A stretch of DNA of 46,909 nucleotides from a virus, in IMG/VR virus record IMGVR_UViG_3300029336_000005; one strand, 5' to 3'. Position 1 is the first letter of the stretch, and each line of letters starts with the position of its first letter. This document shows, piece after piece, positions 9,846 to 46,909 of the stretch. Below the pieces are notes generated by a model that did no database searches, was not told where the DNA came from, and saw nothing but the letters and a program-made list of their open reading frames with translations. The translations under genes and the position numbers were made by a program.

Positions 9846-9866
9846 TTAGTCACAGTTAGTCACAAA
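9846..9866 (+). repeat. Second tandem pair TTAGTCACA-g-TTAGTCACAAA, same orientation, overlapping the integrase stop codon
   Basis: Read directly, ~198 bp from the first pair and preceded by the same cgg context. Confidence 0.7.
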
Positions 9867-11021
9867 CGGGACTTTTATCTTTTCAATCTCTGCCCGGAGT
9901 TCTGCTAGTGTCCTGTGACCGTACACAGCGTTCGTGACATCGTTTCCAAACGAATGTCCCAGCATCCTCTTCCGATCGTTCTCCCGGACGCCATATTTTT
10001 CACACAGAGTAGAAAAGGTGTGTCGACAATCGTGCGGTGTGTGCTTCGGGTCGCCGGTTATTTTCAAGCGTTCCAGTGTAGGGTAAAACAGGGCGTTTCG
10101 GTGTTGTGTCTGGGAATAGATGCAGAGCCTGCCGTTTTGCGTCAGGACCTTGTTCTTCGCAAACTCATATATGGACGGATGAATCGGAACGATCCTGTCT
10201 TTTCCGGCTGCGGTCTTGATGCCACCCTGGAAATATCTTTCTTCAAGATTTGTCGTAAGCTTCAGGACCTCGCCAATTCGCCAGCCGGAGTAGCACATGA
10301 TCAGAATGAGCTGTACTTCTGGATCATCGGTGTTATTCCAGAGAATTTGCAATTCCTCATCCGAAAAAGGTGTGCCATGCTCCGTATCATCATTTGCGTT
10401 AACTTTTACATATAAAGCCTTGTTTTCCGACACAATTTCTGAATAAATGGCATACTTATACATCTGTTTAAAGAGGGTTAATATAATTGCTTTGCTTTGC
10501 TTCTTAAGAGTGCATTTGTCTATTACGTCTTGCAAGTCGGGGGCTTTTAAATCTTCAAATGTGCGATTGCGCAATGTTTTACAGTTTGAGTAAGCTGTTT
10601 TGTATGATTCCATCGAGCTATAAGACGCTTTTGTTCCGTCTGGAAATTTCCATGCGTAGAATTGTTCATATACCTCTGAGAACGTCAATTTGTGCGTTTC
10701 CGGGTGTTTTTCTTCTGTGCCCTTAAATGTATTGTAGTCCGACAAAATACGGCTTATAAGGGCGTCTGCGTCCGTTGTAGGGGCAATCTCAAGTTCCTTT
10801 TCCATACCTGGCTTGTACGTTCCGGCTTTGTATGCTGTCAGAACGGCGAACCCTTTCAGATAGTCGTCAACGTAGCAGATCGCAGGCGGACGGATCGCTT
10901 TTCCTGTTGCGTCAATCGTTGCCGGTGGGTGCACTGCATAGCAGTTTCTTCGACCCTTGCCGAGATAGCGGATAGACCCGAAACTATTCGGCAATTTCGG
11001 GTATTTCTTTCTTTTTGCCAT
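9846..11021 (-). CDS. int: Tyrosine recombinase (phage integrase)
   Basis: 391 aa. The C-terminal catalytic region has WRIGE, HDCRHTF, LGHS and a Y in VYGH. RBS is aaggagga. Confidence 0.9.
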   Translation of the reverse strand: MAKRKKYPKLPNSFGSIRYLGKGRRNCYAVHPPATIDATGKAIRPPAICYVDDYLKGFAVLTAYKAGTYKPGMEKELEIAPTTDADALISRILSDYNTFKGTEEKHPETHKLTFSEVYEQFYAWKFPDGTKASYSSMESYKTAYSNCKTLRNRTFEDLKAPDLQDVIDKCTLKKQSKAIILTLFKQMYKYAIYSEIVSENKALYVKVNANDDTEHGTPFSDEELQILWNNTDDPEVQLILIMCYSGWRIGEVLKLTTNLEERYFQGGIKTAAGKDRIVPIHPSIYEFAKNKVLTQNGRLCIYSQTQHRNALFYPTLERLKITGDPKHTPHDCRHTFSTLCEKYGVRENDRKRMLGHSFGNDVTNAVYGHRTLAELRAEIEKIKVPFVTNCD

Positions 11022-13520: not shown

Positions 13521-13909
13521 CCTTGAGCGTTTACCACAATCCGATAGAAACAAGGCGTCTATTAAATAAAAAGAAACTGCTAGGGGTCTCGTCCCTAACA
13601 GCTCTTTACCAAATTTGTTTACCCTATGTACTTTGCAGGCTGACGCCACATCTGACGAGACCAAATGCTTCTTGAAGCACCTTGTCACTTTCGCAGTCTT
13701 GGTTCTGCAACATGCCTAATCGCTGACAAAACAATCAGAGCCGTCTTTGACCTGTTTTGACTGTCGAGGTATCAGTATGGACGGATTAAAAGCAAAGGGA
13801 ACAGGCAAATTCAAAAGTTGGGTCATGATAACCACTCCTTTCCTTTGCCAATAGGCATTAACTAGGATAACACAAATAAGTGGTAAACGCAACTAAAAAT
13901 AAGTAGGGG

Positions 13910-24406: not shown

Positions 24407-24504
24407 TCACATTCTTATTAGGATTCACCCTTGGAATCATATTCGGAGTAGTCGGTCTTGCATGTGCAGCAATCATGTACGACAAACACCACCCAGACGA
24501 ATAG
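24403..24504 (+). CDS. 33-aa single-TM peptide (MITFLLGFTLGIIFGVVGLACAAIMYDKHHPDE)
   Basis: RBS gaggagga upstream, and the hydrophobic core was read directly. Confidence 0.35.
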   Translation: MITFLLGFTLGIIFGVVGLACAAIMYDKHHPDE

Positions 24505-25437: not shown

Positions 25438-25752
25438 ATGCTGACAAGGAATAAAAAACTGAAAGATTACGGTATTCCGGCAGAAGACATTGAAAAATTG
25501 AACACAATGCTGAAAGACTTCCCGGCAGAGTACGGATACCTGCTTACCGGTGCCGCCTTGTCAGCTTGCCCGAAAAACACGGTGATAGCGGATATGGTTA
25601 TTGAGAATATCCTACATCGGAAAAGTTATAGGAAAATTAGCAGAGAAAGATATATCCCGATGAATCCGAAAGACTTTTATGGATACAGGCGCAAGACCGT
25701 CGCTGTACTGTATGAGAGAATGCGGTTGTTGGGAGTGTGGGAGGAAAAATAA
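25438..25752 (+). CDS. Hypothetical protein (weak resemblance to small phage transcription activators)
   Basis: C-terminal KISRERYIP...FYGYRRKTVAVLYERMRLLG. Not conclusive. Confidence 0.3.
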   Translation: MLTRNKKLKDYGIPAEDIEKLNTMLKDFPAEYGYLLTGAALSACPKNTVIADMVIENILHRKSYRKISRERYIPMNPKDFYGYRRKTVAVLYERMRLLGVWEEK

Positions 25753-27473: not shown

Positions 27474-27803
27474 ATGAAACCAGAAGAAGAAAAAGACATA
27501 TTATCCGATATGAGAGACCAGCATTTATGTTTCTTGGGAGATTCAGAAATCAAAGAAGAATGGCAGAAAAAATATCTCAAGGAAGCATGGGCGTGTGATT
27601 CCGGAGCAAAAGCATTGGAAAAGCAGATTCCGAGGAAGCCGATTGATAAAACAAAACCAGATGATACCGCCAGCCGTGCATATGAAAATTGTAATATTAT
27701 TGTTTGCCCAACCTGCGGCGGACGGTTGAAACTGAAATCAAAAGGTAAATATTGCGATAAGTGTGGTCAGAAATTAGATTGGAGCAAAGAAGATGACAAA
27801 TGA
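27474..27803 (+). CDS. Zinc-ribbon protein
   Basis: CPTCGGRLKLKSKGKYCDKCG. Confidence 0.45.
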   Translation: MKPEEEKDILSDMRDQHLCFLGDSEIKEEWQKKYLKEAWACDSGAKALEKQIPRKPIDKTKPDDTASRAYENCNIIVCPTCGGRLKLKSKGKYCDKCGQKLDWSKEDDK

Positions 27804-28107
27804 CAAACCTACACTTGAAATTGACAGAGAAGAGAACGAAGTTACGATAAAATGCAATGGGGATACTATAAAGTTCAAAGATGATAATGTGGAAGTGACC
27901 AGGGCGAGCAAAAACATGATGTTTAAGTCACCAGACATAACCCCACAGCTTGCCATATCAGCATTCGCAGTGCTGCATCAATATTGCAGCTCAATCAGTC
28001 CACATGACTGCATCAGATGTGCATTCTATGAATATTGCCTGGAATGCTTCATGGGGTGTCCGGGAGATCAGGGCGAGGTAATAAGAAAATTACAAAGCAA
28101 CGAATAA
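27793..28107 (+). CDS. Hypothetical Cys-rich protein, last gene of the early/middle operon
   Basis: HDCIRCAFYEYCLECFMGCPG. Followed by a terminator. Confidence 0.4.
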   Translation: MTNDKPTLEIDREENEVTIKCNGDTIKFKDDNVEVTRASKNMMFKSPDITPQLAISAFAVLHQYCSSISPHDCIRCAFYEYCLECFMGCPGDQGEVIRKLQSNE

Positions 28108-28113
28108 AATTAG

Positions 28114-28140
28114 AGAGTCGGTATTTGCCGGCTCTTTTTT
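28114..28140 (+). terminator. Rho-independent terminator separating early/middle from late genes
   Basis: Stem agagtcgg/ccggctct (one G-T pair), loop tatttg, then tttttt. Confidence 0.75.
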
Positions 28141-28155
28141 AGCGTAAAATTCCTC

Positions 28156-28195
28156 AAACATGTACCACAACTTTTCTGCTGACCTGTGATAGAAT
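28156..28195 (+). promoter_or_regulatory. Late-type promoter copy 1: AAACATGTACCACAAC, 18 nt, TAGAAT (TGa extended -10)
   Basis: The 16-mer is identical to 34110-34125 and 40257-40272 with identical spacing to the -10. It lies right after a terminator and before the packaging genes. Confidence 0.7.
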
Positions 28196-28248: not shown

Positions 28249-29394
28249 ATGAATGTTCAAGAAATTAAATTAAAAGACATAAAACCGTATGAAAAGAACC
28301 CAAGAAAAAATGATGATGCAGTTCCTTACGTCGCTGAAAGTATAAAACAATTTGGATTTAAAGTTCCGATTGTTATTGATAAGAACAACGTAATTGTCGC
28401 TGGACATACCCGATACAAAGCAGCAAAGAAACTCGGATTCAAGAGCGTACCATGTATTATTGCCGATGATTTGACAGACGAACAGATAAAAGCTTTTCGT
28501 TTAGCTGACAATAAGGTATCTGAAAAGGCAGAATGGGATTTAGATTTACTGGACAGCGAAATTGAAGGAATATTCGATATTGATATGACTGATTTTGGGT
28601 TTGAACTCGAATCAGAAGAATTAGAAGCTGAAGAAGATGAATACCAAGGAGCCGTTCCAGATAACCCTTTTACTCAAAAAGGTGATATGTGGAAGTTGGG
28701 GGAGCATCTGCTTTTATGTGGAGATAGCACATGTATCACAGATATTGAGAAATTAATGCATGAAGAAAAGGCTGATATGTGTTTCACTGATCCGCCTTAC
28801 GGATATGAATACCAAAGTAACTTAAGAAAAAAAAGCAAGAAGTTCGACGTCATTGAAAACGATGATAAAATATTAGACTTTTTTCCGAGTATACAGCTTG
28901 TGTGCAATGGTTTTATATTCATATGCACGACGTGGAAAGTATTAGATAAATGGATACCGCTATTTAAAAAATATCATGATTTAACGAATATGATTATCTG
29001 GAACAAAGGTGGAGGCGGAATTGGTGACTTGAAACATACTTTCAGCACTGACTACGAAGTTATACTATGCGCAAATAATGGCAAGGAAATAACTGGAAAA
29101 AGAATCGGTTCCGTATGGACCATAAAAAAAGATTCTTCTTCTGAATACGTTCATCCTACGCAAAAGCCAATAAAGTTGTCAGAATTTGCAATAAGGAACA
29201 CAACAGAGCGTGGAGATATTGTTCTTGATTTATTTGGAGGTTCGGGATCCACATTAATTGCCTGTGAGCAAATGGACCGCAGATGTAGGATGATGGAATA
29301 CGATCCAGCTTATTGCGACGTGATAGTGGACAGATGGGAAAAATTCACAGGAAATAAAGCAAAATTAATCAGAGGGGTAGAAGGAAATGAATAG
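28249..29394 (+). CDS. ParB-like nuclease domain fused to an N6-adenine/N4-cytosine DNA methyltransferase
   Basis: KPYEKNPRKN...VAGHTRYKAAKKLG (ParB N-terminus). FTDPPYG (motif IV) precedes LDLFGGSGST (motif I). Confidence 0.85.
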   Translation: MNVQEIKLKDIKPYEKNPRKNDDAVPYVAESIKQFGFKVPIVIDKNNVIVAGHTRYKAAKKLGFKSVPCIIADDLTDEQIKAFRLADNKVSEKAEWDLDLLDSEIEGIFDIDMTDFGFELESEELEAEEDEYQGAVPDNPFTQKGDMWKLGEHLLLCGDSTCITDIEKLMHEEKADMCFTDPPYGYEYQSNLRKKSKKFDVIENDDKILDFFPSIQLVCNGFIFICTTWKVLDKWIPLFKKYHDLTNMIIWNKGGGGIGDLKHTFSTDYEVILCANNGKEITGKRIGSVWTIKKDSSSEYVHPTQKPIKLSEFAIRNTTERGDIVLDLFGGSGSTLIACEQMDRRCRMMEYDPAYCDVIVDRWEKFTGNKAKLIRGVEGNE

Positions 29395-29397
29395 CAA

Positions 29398-30945
29398 ATG
29401 GCGAATGAAAAAAACTTAAGACCTGGAAGCATGCAAAGCAAGAGCGAAGTTAGAGAAAACGGAAGGAAAGGCGGAATCGCCTCCGGGCAGGCTCGCCGCA
29501 GGAAGAAAACCCTCTCTGAACTTGCGAAAATGATAGCTGACAATCCAGCACCCGACAATGCTCGCGCGAAGCTCGCCAAAATGGGAATAGCCGACGAGGA
29601 CGCAAACAATAACGCTGTTGTAGCAGCATCTATATACGCAAAAGCTGTCAAGGGCAATATGCAGGCAGTAGATAAATGGGAACAGTTGGTAGCTGTATCA
29701 AAATCTGACGAAAGCAAATATGAACTTCCTGCCAGAGTACTCGGCAAGGCATATGTGGACATTAACCGGCAAATCAAGCCTAATATCGAATATGTATTCG
29801 AGGGCGGTCGAGGCGGTCTGAAATCTTCTTATGTGGCTTTTAAAATTGTTGAGCTTATCAAGAATAATCCTCAGATGCATGCCTGCATTACAAGGCAGGT
29901 AGCTGGAACTCTGAAAGATTCCGTATATGCTAACATGAAATGGGCTATAAACGAACTTGGACTAATGGAAGAATTTGAATGTAAGGTGTCACCGCTTGAG
30001 ATCAAGTACATTAAAACTGGACAGACAATATACTTCCGTGGTCTGGACGATGAAACCAAACTGAAATCTATTAAGCCGGAGTTTGGATATATCGGGATCC
30101 TCTGGAAAGAGGAAAAAGATCAAATGAAGGGAGATGCCCAGGAACGTTCTGTTAATCAGTCAGTGCTTCGTGGTGGTGATGAATCCTATGATTTCTCGTC
30201 ATATAATCCGCCAAAATCAAAATCAAACTGGGTAAACAGGATTAAACTGGTACCTAACCCGAAAAGAGTTATCCATCATTCAAGTTATCTGGAAGCCCCG
30301 GCGGAGTGGCTCGGACAGAAGTTTATTGACGATGCAGCACATCTGAAAGAAATCAATCCAGAAGCTTATGAGCATGAATACCTGGGCGTTCCAAACGGTG
30401 ATGGTGGAAACGTCTTTGAATATCTGGAGATTAGAGATATTACAGATGAAGAGATCGGGCACATGGACAAAATATTTCAGGGGTGTGACTGGGGATTTTT
30501 CCCTGATCCGTATGCTTTTATTCGTTTGTATTACAATCATAACACTGAAAAGATATATCTCATTGATGAAATTTACGAAAATAAATGGAGCAATAGGAAA
30601 TCAGCAGACGAGATTCTAAAAAGAAAATATGATGATTATGCTATTACTTGTGATTCTGCCGAGCCTAAATCAATCAATGATTATAGAGATTTTGGACTCC
30701 CGGCAAGGGGTGCAATAAAAGGTCCTGGAAGTGTAGAATATTCTATGAAATGGTTTCAGACAAGGACTATCGTTATTGACCCTAAAAGAACGCCTAACGC
30801 TTATAAAGAGTTTTCAGAGTACGAATATGAAAGAGATAAGGACGGAAATATCATAAGTGGATATCCTGATGAAAACAATCATTTAATTGATGCCTGTAGA
30901 TACGCAACAGAATCATTGTGGAGAAGAAGGGGTAACAATGCATAA
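29398..30945 (+). CDS. terL: Terminase large subunit (PBSX-like) with a ~100-aa TerS-like basic N-terminal extension
   Basis: Walker A GGRGGLKSS, a nuclease C-terminus (DENNHLIDACRYA), and an N-terminus RKGGIASGQARRRKKT...AKAVKGNMQAVDKWEQL. No separate small-subunit ORF lies upstream. Confidence 0.85.
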   Translation: MANEKNLRPGSMQSKSEVRENGRKGGIASGQARRRKKTLSELAKMIADNPAPDNARAKLAKMGIADEDANNNAVVAASIYAKAVKGNMQAVDKWEQLVAVSKSDESKYELPARVLGKAYVDINRQIKPNIEYVFEGGRGGLKSSYVAFKIVELIKNNPQMHACITRQVAGTLKDSVYANMKWAINELGLMEEFECKVSPLEIKYIKTGQTIYFRGLDDETKLKSIKPEFGYIGILWKEEKDQMKGDAQERSVNQSVLRGGDESYDFSSYNPPKSKSNWVNRIKLVPNPKRVIHHSSYLEAPAEWLGQKFIDDAAHLKEINPEAYEHEYLGVPNGDGGNVFEYLEIRDITDEEIGHMDKIFQGCDWGFFPDPYAFIRLYYNHNTEKIYLIDEIYENKWSNRKSADEILKRKYDDYAITCDSAEPKSINDYRDFGLPARGAIKGPGSVEYSMKWFQTRTIVIDPKRTPNAYKEFSEYEYERDKDGNIISGYPDENNHLIDACRYATESLWRRRGNNA

Positions 30946-34070: not shown

Positions 34071-34109
34071 TTAACTAAAGGAAGCTTTAGTTAACCATCA
34101 AAAAAATCA

Positions 34110-34149
34110 AAACATGTACCACAACATTTATTGAAAGAGGTGATATACT
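34110..34149 (+). promoter_or_regulatory. Late-type promoter copy 2: AAACATGTACCACAAC, 18 nt, TATACT (TGa extended -10)
   Basis: Same motif and spacing as copies 1 and 3. The -10 box abuts ATG 34150. Confidence 0.6.
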
Positions 34150-35379
34150 ATGCTTAGTCCTGAATATTTACGCCGGATAACAGAGGGCAGTGAACAGATT
34201 GCAGAAGAACTGCATCAGTATATCATCTCTGAGATTGTATCGCGGATGATGGCAAGAATCGGCAGAGGTGAGGACTATATTCTGACCAATGCGGATGCAT
34301 GGAGAATCAGAACATTACAGGAATCCGGTGAGCTGCTAGAAGACATTCTGGCAGAATTATCCAAATATACAAAACGTGAACAACAGGAACTCCTTGAAGC
34401 GTTTGAAGATGCCGGAATCACTGCAATGGAGTATGATGATAAAGTATACAAGGCGGCGGGGCTAAGCCCTGTACCGCTTGAGCAGTCCCCGGCTATGATA
34501 AGACTCATGGAGCGGAATATGCTTGCGACTATGGGTGAGTGGAAGAACTTCACACGGACAACCGCAAGCGTCGCTCAAAGGCTCTATATTGAGCAATGCG
34601 ACCTTGCATATAATCATGTGATGACTGGGGCGGTTGGGTATACGCAAGCCATCAAAGAGGCAGTTAACAATGTTGTGAGTGATGGTGTTACTGTCACATA
34701 CCCATCTGGCAGAAAAGACACGATTGAAACAGCAGTTGCACGTTCCGTCAGAACCGGTGTGGCACAGGCTACGGGAGATATATCCCTCAAACGCATGGAA
34801 GAAATGGACTGGGATTTAGTTCTGGTCAGTGCGCACATAGGAGCGAGGACGGGCGACGGCGGTCAGAATCCCGGAAATCACTCATGGTGGCAAGGCAAGA
34901 TATACTCTCGTTCTGGCAAGAGTAAGAAATTTCCGCCGTTCTCATTGACCGGATATGGGACAGCAAGCGGACTGTCAGGGGTCAACTGTCGGCATAGCTT
35001 TGGGGCAAGTGATGGAGAATTCAACCCCTATGCAGAACTATCAGCACAGGATAAAGCTGATAAAGGCAAACAGTACGAAAAGGAGCAACGGCAACGTACT
35101 TATGAGCGAAGAATCCGCAAAACGAAGAGAGAAGTTCTCGGAATGCAAGCGGCGGTTAATAACTGCAAGGACGAACAGGCAAGATTTGCACTCCAGCAAG
35201 ACCTTGACCGGAAGTCTTATCTTTTGCAGAAACAAAATGCTGCATATAAAGATTACTGCAATCAAAACGACCTAAGAGAGCTGCAAGACCGGCTCATGAT
35301 TGCTAAATGGAACCGCCAGAACGCCGCTAAAGCCAGAGGAGCGGCAAAACGGTATAAAACAGCAAAGGGGATTGACTGA
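34150..35379 (+). CDS. Minor head protein (Mu F / SPP1 gp7 family)
   Basis: GVNCRHSF motif, a basic coiled C-terminus, and position after the portal region. Confidence 0.75.
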   Translation: MLSPEYLRRITEGSEQIAEELHQYIISEIVSRMMARIGRGEDYILTNADAWRIRTLQESGELLEDILAELSKYTKREQQELLEAFEDAGITAMEYDDKVYKAAGLSPVPLEQSPAMIRLMERNMLATMGEWKNFTRTTASVAQRLYIEQCDLAYNHVMTGAVGYTQAIKEAVNNVVSDGVTVTYPSGRKDTIETAVARSVRTGVAQATGDISLKRMEEMDWDLVLVSAHIGARTGDGGQNPGNHSWWQGKIYSRSGKSKKFPPFSLTGYGTASGLSGVNCRHSFGASDGEFNPYAELSAQDKADKGKQYEKEQRQRTYERRIRKTKREVLGMQAAVNNCKDEQARFALQQDLDRKSYLLQKQNAAYKDYCNQNDLRELQDRLMIAKWNRQNAAKARGAAKRYKTAKGID

Positions 35380-35765
35380 TGGACAGATGGGAATATTACA
35401 ATCCGAATCCTGCCGGGAATCGAGTCGGAGATTGTGCTGTCCGGGCAATATGCAAAGCAACCGGTTTTGACTGGGAAACGGTATTCGCCGGATTAATGAT
35501 ACAGGCGTGTGCTCTGTCAGATATGCCAAGCGCAAATTATGTCTGGGGAGCGTACCTCTATAAGCATGGATACAGACGCAAACTGATTGAACAGTCAGAG
35601 CGATATATCTATACAGTCAACGATTTCTGCACAGACCATCCGACAGGTACGTACATCCTCTGCATAGACGGTCATGTAGTGACGGTACAAGATGGCAAAT
35701 ATTTTGACACATGGGATTCCGGTAATGAGATCCCGGTATATTACTGGGAAAAGGAGAATAAATGA
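35379..35765 (+). CDS. Conserved hypothetical protein with a Cys/His pair (possible papain-like fold)
   Basis: NPNPAGNRVGDCAVRAI ... IDGHVVTVQDGKYFDTWDSG. ATGA overlap with the minor head gene. Confidence 0.3.
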   Translation: MDRWEYYNPNPAGNRVGDCAVRAICKATGFDWETVFAGLMIQACALSDMPSANYVWGAYLYKHGYRRKLIEQSERYIYTVNDFCTDHPTGTYILCIDGHVVTVQDGKYFDTWDSGNEIPVYYWEKENK

Positions 35766-36067
35766 GCATATCAGAATTTGTACAGATTTTCCTCTCTATC
35801 TGTGGAGGGGTGTCTATTGTCGGAGGAGCGGCGGCTGTAATCTTTAAGTGGATTACCCCGGCGTTTCGACTTAATAAGCGAGTAGAGACACTGGAAGAAC
35901 ATGACAAACGAGATTACGAGAGTCTTCAGAGGATTGCAGAGCGAGATTCATTAATTCTGGAAGTGCTGTCGACCATGTTGGACAGTCAGATTAGTGGGAA
36001 TAATGTCGAGGAGTTAAAAAAAACAAAACAGAAGCTCACGGAGTATCTTGCACAGAATCAGCGTTAA
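35762..36067 (+). CDS. Single-TM coiled-coil protein
   Basis: TM IFLSICGGVSIVGGAAAVIF followed by a helical charged region. Confidence 0.4.
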   Translation: MSISEFVQIFLSICGGVSIVGGAAAVIFKWITPAFRLNKRVETLEEHDKRDYESLQRIAERDSLILEVLSTMLDSQISGNNVEELKKTKQKLTEYLAQNQR

Positions 36068-36084
36068 TTGCATTAATAAGGGGT

Positions 36085-36291
36085 ATGCTCATGAAATTAT
36101 ATGTGTTCACAAAGAAAGATATAGACAGGTTCTTGATAGAGTGTAATTTTACACCGGATGAAGAAAAGCTGTTCCGGCTGAGATGCCAGGAACGCACTCT
36201 TGAATACTGCGCTGAACAGATGAATGTGAGTATATCCACGGCGAAACGGTTAAGCCGCCGGGTAAACAATAAAATAATCAAAGTATGCTAA
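36085..36291 (+). CDS. Small sigma-70 region-4-like HTH protein (candidate late transcription factor)
   Basis: FTPDEEKLFRLRCQERTLEYCAEQMNVSISTAKRLSRRVNNKI. The start may be the second ATG at 36091. Confidence 0.55.
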   Translation: MLMKLYVFTKKDIDRFLIECNFTPDEEKLFRLRCQERTLEYCAEQMNVSISTAKRLSRRVNNKIIKVC

Positions 36292-36297
36292 AAGTAA

Positions 36298-36330
36298 GGA
36301 GAGGATATTTTTACCCTCTCCCATTTTTTT
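36298..36330. terminator. Bidirectional terminator between convergent genes
   Basis: Stem ggagagg/cctctcc followed by cattttttt on the plus strand. Confidence 0.7.
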
Positions 36331-37030
36331 AACAAAAATCTTCTTTTACAACCCTTTCAAGTAGATTTATCACGTATTCTGGTGGAGTTCGTTTACCGCC
36401 CTCCCAATTTTCAATACTCCTCTTAGGAATACCGTATTTTTCAGAAAAAGCTTGCTGCGTGAGTCCAGATAACGTTCTAATTTCGTGAAAATCGAGAGGA
36501 TTTGAAGAAACTTTTTCAGGAAATACATCCTCTTCTCTTACCTGATATGTGAAGAATCCCATCGAGGATGGAAGAATTCTAAAATAAAACTTTTCATCGT
36601 TATCTTCTTCTATCCAGGTTTGCTGTAAAAATATTTTTGGACACCATTCTTCTGCTGCAAATAGTTCATCCGTGTCAGAATAAACAAAGTAAGAACATAA
36701 ATCACCTGTACTAGCTTTTATTCTTTTCACTTCATCATAGATAAATTTTGTTCTGACGTATCGTACTACGCTAAGTACCTGTTCTATACTAAGATCCGGA
36801 AACAAAATTTCAATTTGCTTATAAGTTTTACTCCATAGCCACATATGATATTTATCATCTAATTCCACTGGCGTATCAATGTAACCGTCGCCACGAGCTG
36901 ACAAGAGATGGTACACAAAGCTAGTTATCTCTTTATCATTTGGAAATAGTAAAAGATTTGACTTTTCCTGATCCTCAAGATCTTGTTTTACCATGTCTAA
37001 AAACTTTTCATATTCATATTTTTTAATCAT
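36329..37030 (-). CDS. Two-domain protein: unknown N-terminal domain plus a C-terminal MqsA/HigA-like XRE HTH
   Basis: C-terminus IRTLSGLTQQAFSEKYGIPKRSIENWEGGKRTPPEYVINLL. AT-rich and antisense to the late operon. Confidence 0.65.
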   Translation of the reverse strand: MIKKYEYEKFLDMVKQDLEDQEKSNLLLFPNDKEITSFVYHLLSARGDGYIDTPVELDDKYHMWLWSKTYKQIEILFPDLSIEQVLSVVRYVRTKFIYDEVKRIKASTGDLCSYFVYSDTDELFAAEEWCPKIFLQQTWIEEDNDEKFYFRILPSSMGFFTYQVREEDVFPEKVSSNPLDFHEIRTLSGLTQQAFSEKYGIPKRSIENWEGGKRTPPEYVINLLERVVKEDFC

Positions 37031-37031
37031 T

Positions 37032-37484
37032 TTATTTTTCTCCTTTCTTTTCTTTTCCGTTGTAGTGTTTTAATATGCTATAGAAATAGTCTTCACAATA
37101 GCAACCGCGTTCTTTACTGAGTATTGCATATAAGCTGTCGTGCGGATTCCTTGGTTCTATGGCGTATTCGCGATGATTAATAAACCAGCTTGCTTCTGTA
37201 ATGGTGAATAAAATATTTACGGTTCTTTTTACTCTTTCTAATCTTTTGACGCGGCTATTAACTCTGTGATATTCAACAAGACTGTTTCCATACTCGATCA
37301 TCTTCTTACGAATATCCTCAGCCCAGGCAATCTGTTTCGGACTCCCAACCAGTTCTGGTAATTCTTTACACATACCTTTTACTTCCTTCCATGCTTTCTT
37401 AAGACCGGAGGAAATAGACATTCCAGCTTTCTTAACTAACTCCCATGCCCTTTTCATGATTGCTGATAAATTATATTTTTTCAT
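37032..37484 (-). CDS. Hypothetical protein, first gene of the antisense cassette
   Basis: 150 aa with motifs IMKRAWELVKKAG, LKKAWKEVKG and GSPKQIAWAEDIRKKM. RBS aaggagga. The stop abuts the start of the next gene. Confidence 0.55.
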   Translation of the reverse strand: MKKYNLSAIMKRAWELVKKAGMSISSGLKKAWKEVKGMCKELPELVGSPKQIAWAEDIRKKMIEYGNSLVEYHRVNSRVKRLERVKRTVNILFTITEASWFINHREYAIEPRNPHDSLYAILSKERGCYCEDYFYSILKHYNGKEKKGEK

Positions 37485-40256: not shown

Positions 40257-40296
40257 AAACATGTACCACAACTTTTTGGATACTTTGTGGTAAAAT
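40257..40296 (+). promoter_or_regulatory. Late-type promoter copy 3: AAACATGTACCACAAC, 18 nt, TAAAAT (TGg extended -10)
   Basis: Same motif and spacing as copies 1 and 2. Upstream of the leader RNA, tRNA and head genes. Confidence 0.7.
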
Positions 40297-40302
40297 ATAT
40301 TC

Positions 40303-40590
40303 ATAGGGAAGATTCGTAAGTGGTTGACGCCACTTGACATAGACATTTTTTTTCATTGATTCCTCCTTTCTTGGGCACGTGTCCTTAACAGAAACAGGTT
40401 CGAGCGGAATCTGGAGGTTGAAAAGCGGATGCAATTTCCGACACGCGCCATTACTGTCTATATGACTTGCTCGCTCGCATAGACAGTACGCGCCTCCTTG
40501 TAAAAGGTAGATGGGCGGACAGACGCCCGAAACAACTCGTGGCAGGCATGACACGTAAAACACCTTGCTAACCCGGGAATCCGGGTTAAA
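40303..40590 (+). ncRNA. Candidate structured leader RNA (~290 nt, no plus-strand ORF) between late promoter 3 and the tRNA
   Basis: Hairpins read directly: aagtgg/ccactt; cgcg..tactgtctat/atagacagta..cgcg (10+4 bp); gggcg/cgccc; acccgg/ccgggt. Possible long-range pair acgtgtc (40377-83) with gacacgt (40550-56). Confidence 0.3.
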
Positions 40591-40662
40591 GGCAGGATGG
40601 AGAAGTGGAATCTCGCAAGGTTCATATCCTTGAGAACGGCGGTTCGAATCCGTCTCCTGCAA
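40591..40662 (+). tRNA. tRNA with anticodon CAU (Met-type; could be elongator Met, initiator-like or lysidine-Ile2)
   Basis: Hand-folded cloverleaf. Acceptor ggcagga/tcctgca (G1-A72 unpaired), U8, D arm gaga-agtggaa-tctc, anticodon arm caagg-ttCATat-ccttg, variable agaac, T arm ggcgg-ttcgaat-ccgtc, discriminator A. No encoded CCA. Confidence 0.8.
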
Positions 40663-40737
40663 TTACCCTGCCAGTGGTCTAACTGGCTTAATCCATACCT
40701 GCGGCGGCAGGTCAATAAACACGACCAGGAGGATATT

Positions 40738-41370
40738 ATGCAGAAACTTATTGACACATTAAAATCATTTGGAATCGAAATCCCGGAGGACAAACAGGCA
40801 GATGTGAAAAAGGCACTCTCTGAGCATTATAAAAATGCTAAAGAAGTAGCAAAAACTCTGTCGAAAGTCGAGGGTGAACGTGATGACTGGAAAGTACGTG
40901 CGGAGACGGCAGAAGAAACTCTGAAAGGTTTTGACGGTATCGACCCGGCGAACATTCAGACGGAGCTTGCTGGATGGAAGAAAAAAGCCGAAGATGCAGA
41001 GAAAGAATTCAATGCAAAAATCTACGACCGTGATTTTTCAGATGCACTCAAAGCGGCACTCGATGATGTTAAATTTTCCAGTGAAGCTGCAAAGAAGTCT
41101 GTTATGGCAGACATTAAGGAAGCAGGATTGAAGCTGAAAGATGGTAAAATCCTTGGACTGAACGACTTGATCGAACAGATGAAGCAGTCTGACGCGTCTG
41201 CTTTTGTGGATGAATCTCAGCAGCAGGCTCAGCAGAATCAGGCAAGATTTACCACTCACGTTGGACAGCAGCAGACACCGGGAAGCATGACGAAAAAAGA
41301 TATCGAAGCGATCAAAGACCCGTCCGAGAGACAGGCTGCAATCGCTCAGAATATCCAGTTATTCCAGTGA
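40738..41370 (+). CDS. Scaffolding protein (phage GP20-like)
   Basis: ATG after ccaggagga. Helical and acidic (DDWKVRAETAEETLKGF, AEDAEKEF). Immediately precedes the capsid gene. Confidence 0.7.
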   Translation: MQKLIDTLKSFGIEIPEDKQADVKKALSEHYKNAKEVAKTLSKVEGERDDWKVRAETAEETLKGFDGIDPANIQTELAGWKKKAEDAEKEFNAKIYDRDFSDALKAALDDVKFSSEAAKKSVMADIKEAGLKLKDGKILGLNDLIEQMKQSDASAFVDESQQQAQQNQARFTTHVGQQQTPGSMTKKDIEAIKDPSERQAAIAQNIQLFQ

Positions 41371-45997: not shown

Positions 45998-46423
45998 ATG
46001 GCAAAAGTAATTAATACCAAAATTGATGATGGAATTCTCATTTTTACATTCACAAATAATGAAGACGAAGTCTTTTCTTCTTTTAAACTGAACCCGACGG
46101 ACATCAATGTAGCAGCACGTGCAGAGGAACTGACAGAATATTTTGAGCAGCTCAAAGATTCTATTCAGAAAGTCACATCTGGTAAAGAGATGGCAGAGTT
46201 GAATAGACAGATTGAGGACAAAATCAACTACCTGCTCGGATATGAAGCATCAAAAGACCTGTTCAAAGAGCCGATCACGGCAACTACTGTATTCGGCAAT
46301 GGTCAGGTATTCGCTTATATTGTTCTTGATAAGATCGCAGAAGCAATCGCACCGGAAATCGAAAAGAGAAAAAAGAAAATGCAGGCAGCAGTCAATAAGT
46401 ATACGGAGAAGTATGCAAAATGA
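45998..46423 (+). CDS. Tail assembly chaperone (gpG-like)
   Basis: Acidic 141-aa protein between the major tail protein and the Gp15-like gene. Confidence 0.55.
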   Translation: MAKVINTKIDDGILIFTFTNNEDEVFSSFKLNPTDINVAARAEELTEYFEQLKDSIQKVTSGKEMAELNRQIEDKINYLLGYEASKDLFKEPITATTVFGNGQVFAYIVLDKIAEAIAPEIEKRKKKMQAAVNKYTEKYAK

Positions 46424-46909
46424 CCGCCTATGAGCTTCCCACCTCACTAAATATAAGTGGGGTGGATTTTTCTATCAGGACAGATTTCCGAGCGATCATT
46501 GATATTCTCATTGCTATGAATGACCCAGAGTTAGACGAACAGGCGAAAGCAGTTGTTATGCTACAGATCCTGTTTGAGGACTGGCAGAGTATACCGGCTG
46601 AATGTCTGGATGAAGCTTGTCAGAAAGCATCGGAGTTCATCGACTGCGGACAGTTGGACGATAATCCGAACCACCCGAAACCCCGTTTGATGGACTGGGA
46701 GCAGGATGGAGACATGATCGTGCCGGCTGTAAACAAGGTTGCCGGCAAAGAAATCAGAGCCGTACCGTATATGCACTGGTGGACGTTCTTCGGGTACTTT
46801 ATGGAGTCTGGCGAATGCCTATTCAACACAGTTGTTGGAATCCGGTCGAAAAAGGCAAAAGGTGAACGCCTGGACAAATGGGAAAAGAAATTCTATCAGG
46901 AAAACAAGA
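46420..46909 (+). CDS. N-terminal part of the Gp15-like tail assembly chaperone (continues at 1..206)
   Basis: ATGA overlap with the upstream gene. The ORF is open to the window end and in frame with 15..206 after circular closure. Confidence 0.7.
   Translation, partial: MTAYELPTSLNISGVDFSIRTDFRAIIDILIAMNDPELDEQAKAVVMLQILFEDWQSIPAECLDEACQKASEFIDCGQLDDNPNHPKPRLMDWEQDGDMIVPAVNKVAGKEIRAVPYMHWWTFFGYFMESGECLFNTVVGIRSKKAKGERLDKWEKKFYQENK
46787..46909. repeat. Terminal overlap, copy 2 (identical to 1-123)
   Basis: Same 123-nt string as the window start. Confidence 0.95.

Follow-up and report, generated by a model that had tools for sequence, protein, structure and literature searches.

A conserved 16-nt box at putative late promoters of a temperate siphophage and a candidate family of box-specific activators

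Results

Organisation of the locus

The window, which is the whole analysed stretch of 46,909 nucleotides, is a temperate siphophage, whose nearest public records are unannotated phage contigs from human faeces. An integrase gene is located on the minus strand, and a long rightward early operon ends at a strong intrinsic terminator. Shortly behind this terminator lies the first of three copies of the 16-nt sequence AAACATGTACCACAAC, which is named W box in the following. The earlier note had reported three identical 16-mers on the plus strand, and all of them were recovered as exact matches. It had furthermore placed copy 1 after the early-operon terminator and before the packaging genes. This holds as well: genes for a methylase and for the large terminase subunit lie downstream, and these are followed by probable portal and head genes. 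The features of this part of the window, together with the boxes and their extended -10 elements, are the following.

9846-11021, minus strand: integrase gene
28112-28140, plus strand: intrinsic terminator, located 15 nt upstream of box copy 1; its fold has a dG of -15.4 kcal/mol and z -4.07, and a U-run comes after it
28156-28171, plus strand: W box copy 1, exact match; upstream element of the putative packaging-operon late promoter
28187-28195, plus strand: extended -10 of copy 1, TGATAGAAT (putative packaging promoter), preceded by a 'TGTG' of the TRTG type
28249-29394, plus strand: ParB_N/N6_N4 DNA methylase (Pfam), first gene behind copy 1
29398-30945, plus strand: terminase large subunit (Pfam), behind copy 1
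34110-34125, plus strand: W box copy 2, exact match; upstream of the minor capsid protein 2 gene
34141-34149, plus strand: extended -10 of copy 2, TGATATACT, at the canonical 15-nt distance from the box
40257-40272, plus strand: W box copy 3, exact match; putative head-operon late promoter
40288-40296, plus strand: extended -10 of copy 3, TGGTAAAAT (putative head-operon promoter)

Two observations concern other parts of the window. A FuFi-1 RNA motif (13571-13730, minus strand; Rfam, 136 bits) is located in the lysogeny/early switch region; FuFi-1 belongs to the orphan structured RNAs and has a terminator at its 3' end (PMC5737381). Within the late region, two minus-strand genes (36329-37484) code for a 233-aa HTH_3 protein and a 150-aa protein. 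They possess a promoter of their own, a near-consensus TTGACA-17-TATTAT with a TG (37554-37526), and the pair resembles a moron or an accessory regulatory island.

The box replaces a recognisable -35 element

When up to three mismatches were allowed, the window contained one further match to the W box, at position 24471. Not one of 100 shuffled sequences reached four matches of this quality, in agreement with the earlier statement that the repetition is not due to chance. The match at 24471 was rejected as a fourth site: a suitably spaced -10 is missing there, and chance alone would give 0.53 matches of this kind.

The bases that follow the box directly are TTTT, ATTT and TTTT in copies 1, 2 and 3, respectively, which corresponds to the (T/A)TTT described before. 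In all three copies, 15 nt separate the box from the TG of the extended -10 and 18 nt separate it from the TAnnnT hexamer. The distance of 18 nt given in the earlier note is thus correct for the hexamer, but not for the TG to which it had been assigned. Each of the three elements has a TGn directly upstream of a TAnnnT hexamer, as in the extended -10 of sigma-A promoters. A TTGACA-like -35 hexamer was not found 16-18 nt upstream at any of the three sites; at the usual spacing of 17 nt, the -35 position is occupied by ACAACT or ACAACA, which matches TTGACA in two of six positions. A consensus promoter scan of the window missed all three sites, because the first hexamer fails to resemble TTGACA. 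The previous description of the box as not TTGACA-like is in line with both results.

Outside of the box and the -10, an alignment of the three regions revealed no similarity, and no further W-like boxes were found before extended -10 sites in the whole window. With an assumed transcription start 7 nt behind the hexamer, the box would cover positions of about -46 to -31. A hairpin or cruciform formed by box and -10 was considered and rejected, although the TGTACCACA of the box is the reverse complement of TGTGGTACA: the segment from box to -10 does not fold better than shuffled sequences (z +0.76 for copy 1, -0.68 for copy 3), and complementarity of this kind is absent in the other box types described below.

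Copy 2 overlaps the start of the minor capsid gene

34150-35379, plus strand: minor capsid protein 2 gene (Pfam Phage_min_cap2, E 1.7e-74)

The Phage_min_cap2 alignment comprises residues 2-370 of the protein and profile positions 1-365. The -10 bases of copy 2 constitute at the same time the Shine-Dalgarno sequence GAGGTGAT and the spacer of this ORF, and the ATG at 34150 abuts the hexamer. The first nucleotide of a transcript from copy 2 would lie within the annotated minor capsid ORF, about 6 nt behind its start, and for this reason copy 2 is not a simple minor capsid promoter. Among 26 unique copy 2 orthologues, T-12, A-11 and T-7 are invariant and the middle bases vary, as one would expect of a -10. 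In 12 of these 26 orthologues, the ATG of the minor capsid gene is an ATA and the ribosome-binding site is kept; either the gene has a weak, non-canonical start or it starts elsewhere. Copy 2 may be an internal promoter for the genes at 35379-36291, with the minor capsid protein being produced from copy 1 transcripts alone; alternatively, the box has some other role at this position. Relatives keep the copy 2 box, commonly in the A14G form AAACATGTACCACGAC, and the genes in front of it vary.

Just before copy 2, a 10-bp AT-rich hairpin (TTAACTAAAG-gaag-CTTTAGTTAA; 34071-34094, dG -9.3, z -4.6) begins at the stop codon of a 522-aa ORF and has no U-run after it. This hairpin is kept in relatives, where the loops are variable.

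Copy 3 precedes a structured leader

40374-40449, plus strand: RAGATH-21 RNA motif (Rfam, 90 bits compared to a gathering score of 70.3)
40591-40662, plus strand: tRNA-Met (CAT) (Rfam tRNA, 53.5 bits; ARAGORN)

According to the earlier note, copy 3 precedes the head genes. Scaffold and major capsid genes do lie downstream, but they are preceded by a leader of about 440 nt (40296-40740), which contains the RAGATH-21 motif and the tRNA. The listed ORF start at 40597 falls inside the tRNA-Met; the real scaffold start is likely the ATG at 40738, in front of which the ribosome-binding site AGGAGG is found.

Between the -10 and the RAGATH-21 motif, the plus-strand sequence UUGAUUCCUCCUUUC at 40357-40369 resembles the 3' end of 16S rRNA. 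Read on the minus strand, the same segment is a perfect ribosome-binding site plus ATG. The corresponding ORF is not conserved (in Dulem virus 35, a stop follows right after the ATG), and a function of the CCUCC within the leader RNA is therefore possible.

Conservation and spread of the W box

In order to determine the distribution of the box, viral contigs were scanned for exact matches to the 16-mer. The scan yielded at least 108 loci, which represent, among the matches listed, at least 92 distinct contexts. Nearly all of the listed contexts are the three positions orthologous to those of the window or a fourth context in a different element, designated class D; about a dozen listed matches lie inside coding sequence and are due to chance. 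Copy 3 contributed 38 orthologous copies among the loci anchored on the W box. The earlier note had proposed to look for the motif upstream of packaging and head genes in related phages, and it is present there at the same three positions.

Orthologues of copy 1 were collected in a manner that guards against ascertainment bias: loci were retrieved via a protein, and the site was located by its flanks only. In the resulting 25 unique orthologues, none of the 16 box columns varies and the four T's after the box are invariant. Of the other columns, 10 of 15 in the spacer, 24 of 36 upstream and 3 of 9 in the extended -10 vary. Selection on the box is strong. The distance of 15 nt from box to extended -10 is constant across all orthologues. 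Some of them have another ORF in front of copy 1.

The combination of box and -10 pattern was additionally searched in 185,579 species genomes, which gave five occurrences, all of them inside class D elements. The respective genomes are three Blautia, one 'Ruminococcus sp.' and one bin labelled Prevotella. Because of these five genomes, the hosts are likely Blautia-type Lachnospiraceae. A literature search retrieved no description of the W box or of the 104-aa protein family introduced below.

Class D elements

The class D loci (L001, L014, L064, L189-L193) correspond to elements of about 16-20 kb that are integrated in Blautia and encode a Tn916-type integrase, an HTH repressor, a D5-type primase-helicase and Rha. 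As structural genes they contain three tail genes only, whose products are a 137-aa protein, a Gp15-like chaperone that is 86% identical to the product of 46399-46908 of the window, and a 1305-aa tape measure protein. The tail genes lie behind one W box and are accompanied by the element's own member of the 104-aa family. Terminase, portal and capsid genes are not visible in the class D loci. Judged by this gene content, class D resembles a phage satellite, which would supply the tape measure protein itself and use the late signal of a helper.

A 104-aa protein is shared by the window and class D

25438-25752, plus strand: gene of the candidate box-specific late activator (104 aa, all-helical; uncharacterised family)

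All ORFs of the window were compared with seven class D loci, which carry the same box in an otherwise different element. Apart from tail proteins, the product of 25438-25752 was the only protein common to both. The member from the window and the one from class D are about 31% identical, yet the 16-mer is identical. The family comprises about 145 clusters at 50% identity and is characterised by an N-terminal M[RLK]TR.K...DYG motif and a C-terminal DFYGYRRK motif.

The protein from the window had no match in Pfam or NCBIfam at E<=0.1, nor did it match functionally annotated PHROGs or PDB sequences. An AlphaFold (AF2) model consists of six helices and has a pLDDT of 94.7. A Foldseek search of this model against the PDB gave no significant neighbour (best E about 1), and the significant matches in BFVD were uncharacterised phage proteins only. 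A likeness to sigma domains was considered and rejected (TM scores 0.2-0.47, E above 2). No recognisable DNA-binding domain was found in the protein, and the family alignment showed no conserved Cys4.

In the window, the gene is located 2.4 kb upstream of copy 1, and seven ORFs plus the terminator lie in between. In class D, the family gene follows the tape measure gene, and 5.4 kb separate it from the box, which lies upstream. The family gene is the last early gene, immediately in front of the terS promoter, in the subtypes G, K, N, Du, L255 and P0139; across most subtypes, the distance from the end of the gene to the boxed terS promoter is 20-50 nt.

Related phages carry other boxes and other family subtypes

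Related phages have the same layout with other boxes, which include AAAATGTGGGGACAAA, AAAGTGGTAGAGAGCT and AAAGGTGTATACAAA. All box types begin with AAA, and from there it is 30 or 31 nt to the TG of the downstream extended -10. Across these phages, the type of the box goes with its own subtype of the 104-aa family, as follows.

Dulem virus 35 (complete, gene order as in the window): N-terminus MKTRQTSYVDYG, 33% identity, last early gene; box AAAGGTGTATACAAAAA
MT835739 (G type): N-terminus MRTRQKSLVDFG; box AAAATGTGGGGACAAA
'MRTRDKNYSDYG' subfamily: N-terminus MRTRDKNYSDYG; box AAATGTGGGGACG(A/G)TT, present behind the gene in 19 of 38 loci
K type: N-terminus MKLRKATLIDYG; box AAAGTGGTAGAGAGCT, directly after the gene
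N type: N-terminus MNLRKATLTDYG; box AAAGTGGTGTAGAGGT, directly after the gene
Locus L255: N-terminus MRTRYKKLRDYG; box AAATGTGCTGGGAAG, directly after the gene
Locus L276: N-terminus MFTRKKSLVDWG; box AAATATGGGGGACAAC, directly after the gene
Locus L277: N-terminus MLTRKKSLVDWG; box AAATATGGGGACAAT, directly after the gene

In Dulem virus 35, the box occurs directly after the family gene before terS and again before the scaffold gene, and the G boxes of MT835739 occupy the same two sites. A second K box is present at a distal promoter in two loci (L021, L081). W-box loci of the terS type that are covered for at least 3.5 kb upstream contain an MLTRNKKL-type gene without exception (14 of 14), located 1.6-3.9 kb upstream. 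Similarly, an own family member is encoded in all six class D loci with sufficient coverage. Some genomes combine two types. Seven loci possess both a W gene and a K gene, and in these the K box is found at terS and the W box at the minor capsid gene. In MT835739, a G-type gene is accompanied by a truncated W-type gene, and two G boxes and one W box are present.

The RAGATH-21 leader in front of the scaffold gene is preceded by the W box in the window, by the Du box in Dulem virus 35 and L195, and by the G box in MT835739 and L194. Since one and the same leader occurs with three box types, the box follows the regulator of the phage and not the downstream gene. The adjacency of gene and box in most subtypes means that linkage alone would give part of the pairing. 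Three observations nevertheless argue for a pairing beyond mere adjacency: the distances in the window and in class D, the genomes with two subtypes, and the RAGATH-21 leader with its three boxes.

The overall identity between subtypes is 28-44% and does not track the similarity of the boxes. The idea that the box type depends on residue 2 of the protein (MLTR for W, MRTR for G) was refuted by L277, where MLTR occurs with a AAATATGGGGACAAT box. Among 80 loci with a 96-99% identical W-type gene, 42 have no W box within 10 kb; many of these 42 are different mosaic phages, with the late region beyond the retrieved locus, and have contigs of 67-84 kb or early genes filling the flank. In five loci (L136, L177, L178, L169, L179), late genes are visible and a G, K or N box is located at terS, with no W box in view.

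A further observation concerns the boxed terS promoters of the G, K and P0139 types. A strong hairpin with a U-run encloses their -10 and start region in L194 (10078-10150, minus strand), L120 (12358-12432), L276 (6322-6392) and L277 (2538-2606). The dG values are -26 to -29 kcal/mol, the z values -3.6 to -7, and compensatory changes are found between variants. Such a nested hairpin would terminate early read-through, and a transcript from the late promoter, which is devoid of the left arm, would escape.

Discussion

A model for late transcription

On balance, and with moderate confidence, we favour the reading that the three 16-mers are activator-dependent late-promoter boxes and that the product of 25438-25752 is the best candidate for the activator. 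The earlier note had proposed a phage-specific late promoter class which is recognised by a phage-encoded factor. This proposal is partly supported by the invariant box, its fixed distance to the -10, the swapping of boxes and their pairing with protein subtypes.

According to the favoured reading, the extended -10 (TRTGnTAnAAT) of each promoter would be read by the primary sigma factor of the host, and the box would take the place of the -35 hexamer. The promoters would be weak or silent until a phage protein from the early operon binds the box. Once bound, the protein may recruit RNA polymerase or stabilise it, in the manner of a class-II-type activator or by standing in for sigma region 4. 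Early transcription would stop at 28112-28140, and late transcription would restart at the boxes. The unit of copy 1 would comprise the packaging genes, that of copy 2 the genes behind the minor capsid start, and that of copy 3 the RAGATH-21/tRNA-Met leader plus head and tail genes. The architecture of the sites, its conservation, the swapping of boxes and the pairing of gene subtype with box type were observed, and the start sites and the box-binding protein of this model are inferred.

Which factor reads the box?

It is unlikely that the boxes are read by an alternative sigma factor or a transcription factor of the host (Blautia), which the phages have adopted. For such a factor speaks that the identical 16-mer is used in two different elements of one host genus, whose family proteins share no more than 31% identity, and that some phages with a W-type gene show no visible W box. 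These points have to be weighed against the occurrence of several box types in single genomes and across very closely related late regions, and against the correspondence of box type and family-gene subtype. Moreover, all five loci found in the 185,579 species genomes are integrated phage-like elements and none is a host promoter, in a scan that would miss a looser host regulon because it needed the exact 16-mer.

Another phage protein is a rather improbable reader of the box. The candidates are a small protein encoded in the copy 2 operon and the two Cys-rich proteins encoded at the end of the early operon.

27474-27803 and 27793-28107: ORFs of Cys-rich proteins before copy 1
36085-36291, plus strand: gene of a 68-aa HTH protein resembling sigma-70 region 4 (phrog_1190 'RNA polymerase sigma factor', E 2.7e-6)

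The 68-aa protein matches models of sigma region 4, as do LtrA-type activators (PMC3753634); with Pfam Sigma70_r4 it attains E 0.0058, which is below the cut-off. Its gene is the last one of the copy 2 operon, in front of a bidirectional terminator (36297-36322). This protein is 92-98% identical in phages that have W, G, K or N boxes at terS, and no copy of it was detected in either Dulem virus 35 or class D. Because it is nearly identical across box types and missing in these elements, the 68-aa protein cannot set box specificity and was rejected as its determinant; it is possible that it acts as a common co-factor. The product of 27474-27803 has a weak zinc-ribbon match, and its ORF stands at the end of the early operon. 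The ORFs just before copy 1 were rejected as regulator genes, as they lack homologues in the class D loci; in addition, as noted above, the ORF upstream of copy 1 is not the same in all orthologues.

Two further readings are less likely. One of them, which we regard as very improbable, assumes constitutive extended -10 promoters and takes the box for the operator of a late-gene repressor. Extended -10 promoters of Gram-positive bacteria can work without a -35 element, and the box overlaps a position where a bound protein would block polymerase. The box has, however, no dyad symmetry beyond ACATGT, and the paired gene is located in the lytic early operon, which is the typical position of a late activator. 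In relatives, the promoter is furthermore nested in a terminator that blocks read-through; this arrangement is sensible only if initiation is switched on there. Activation rather than repression is what we infer from these points. Finally, a non-transcriptional role of the 16-mer as a junction at module boundaries or as a packaging or replication site is highly unlikely. In favour of such a role, relatives have differing genes upstream of copy 2, which places the box at a mosaic joint. Against it, the distance of 15 nt to the -10 is fixed in every copy and every box type, the orientation is always that of the downstream genes, the three copies are dispersed and all intergenic, 16 bp are short for homologous exchange, and no hairpin of box and -10 forms.

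Relation to known systems

Returning to the activator reading, the functionally closest known system appears to be that of the Ltr activators. These are encoded just upstream of terS and bind the terS promoter, and a terminator blocks read-through; the superfamily from phages of Gram-positive bacteria comprises RinA, ArpU, LtrA/Sigma70_r4, LtrB/DUF1492 and LtrC (PMC3152322, PMC3753634). As in these systems, the candidate is a small phage protein, and in most subtypes, though neither in the window nor in class D, its gene stands right before the terS promoter at the end of the early operon. There it would likewise act on the promoter next to its own gene, with a specificity that differs between families. 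In contrast to the block of direct repeats of Ltr systems, a single 16-nt box abuts the -35 position, and no repeats were found near the box at any of the three promoters. Further differences are that two or three boxed promoters exist per genome instead of a single terS promoter, and that the gene of the window lies 2.4 kb from the first box. With regard to the family models (TIGR rinA/arpU, Sigma70_r4, DUF1492), the protein from the window had no NCBIfam or Pfam match, and none of 65 members of the 104-aa family matched the Pfam models of the Ltr families.

The system also resembles that of P2 Ogr and P4 delta, in which several late promoters with a poor -35 share one upstream element and depend on a very small phage protein, and in which a satellite has a homologue and the same element. 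Here, three W boxes are located in the window and one on class D, which encodes the 31%-identical member. Ogr and delta are Cys4 zinc proteins that bind the dyad TGT-N12-ACA near -55 in Gram-negative hosts. In contrast, the 104-aa family is all-helical and lacks a conserved Cys4, and thus differs from Cys4 zinc-finger activators, which measure about 70-80 aa. The box of the family is not symmetric and would lie at about -46 to -31.

T4 MotA/AsiA as well as Mu Mor and C function at promoters that combine a -10 for the host sigma factor with a phage box in place of the -35, and this box is read by the phage protein. The phage-specific box in front of a host-sigma -10 is a feature in common with these systems; homology of the 104-aa family to MotA, AsiA, Mor or C was not detected. 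The downstream half of every site fits the extended -10 (TRTGnTATAAT) of Firmicute sigma-A promoters, whereas the -35 of the latter is replaced by a longer, invariant box. The -10 is of the TATAAT type and not of the CGT type seen at promoters of ECF-type sigma factors. Among the scanned ORFs, which included part of the early ORFs, no full sigma factor was found, but only the 68-aa fragment resembling region 4. Because membership in the known families was not observed, the sites are addressed as activator-type late promoters with a new candidate activator family.

Implications for phages of gut Lachnospiraceae

A more general view is tentative, and we hold it with less than even confidence. 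It states that a previously undescribed family of helical proteins of about 100 aa, for which no relation to RinA/ArpU, sigma, Ogr or MotA was detected, is the late-gene switch of many phages of gut Lachnospiraceae, that its boxes are modular, and that class D shares the signal. At least seven box types would have been exchanged like cassettes before the same genes and before the same RAGATH-21 leader, and some phages would run two regulator-box pairs in parallel. By analogy, class D with its identical box and divergent family member would be a case of Ogr/delta-style cross-talk in Firmicutes.

To our knowledge, late-gene control is well worked out in a few model phages and essentially unknown in temperate phages of the dominant gut Firmicutes. 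If the pairing of protein and box is true, it would provide the missing late activator for a very abundant group of phages and, at the same time, a simple rule for annotating their late promoters. The orphan RAGATH-21 would be placed in a defined transcription unit, namely as part of the leader of the head operon. The naturally orthogonal pairs of regulator and promoter would be available as genetic parts for Lachnospiraceae, and the phage and class D may represent a helper-satellite pair in Blautia that shares one late signal.
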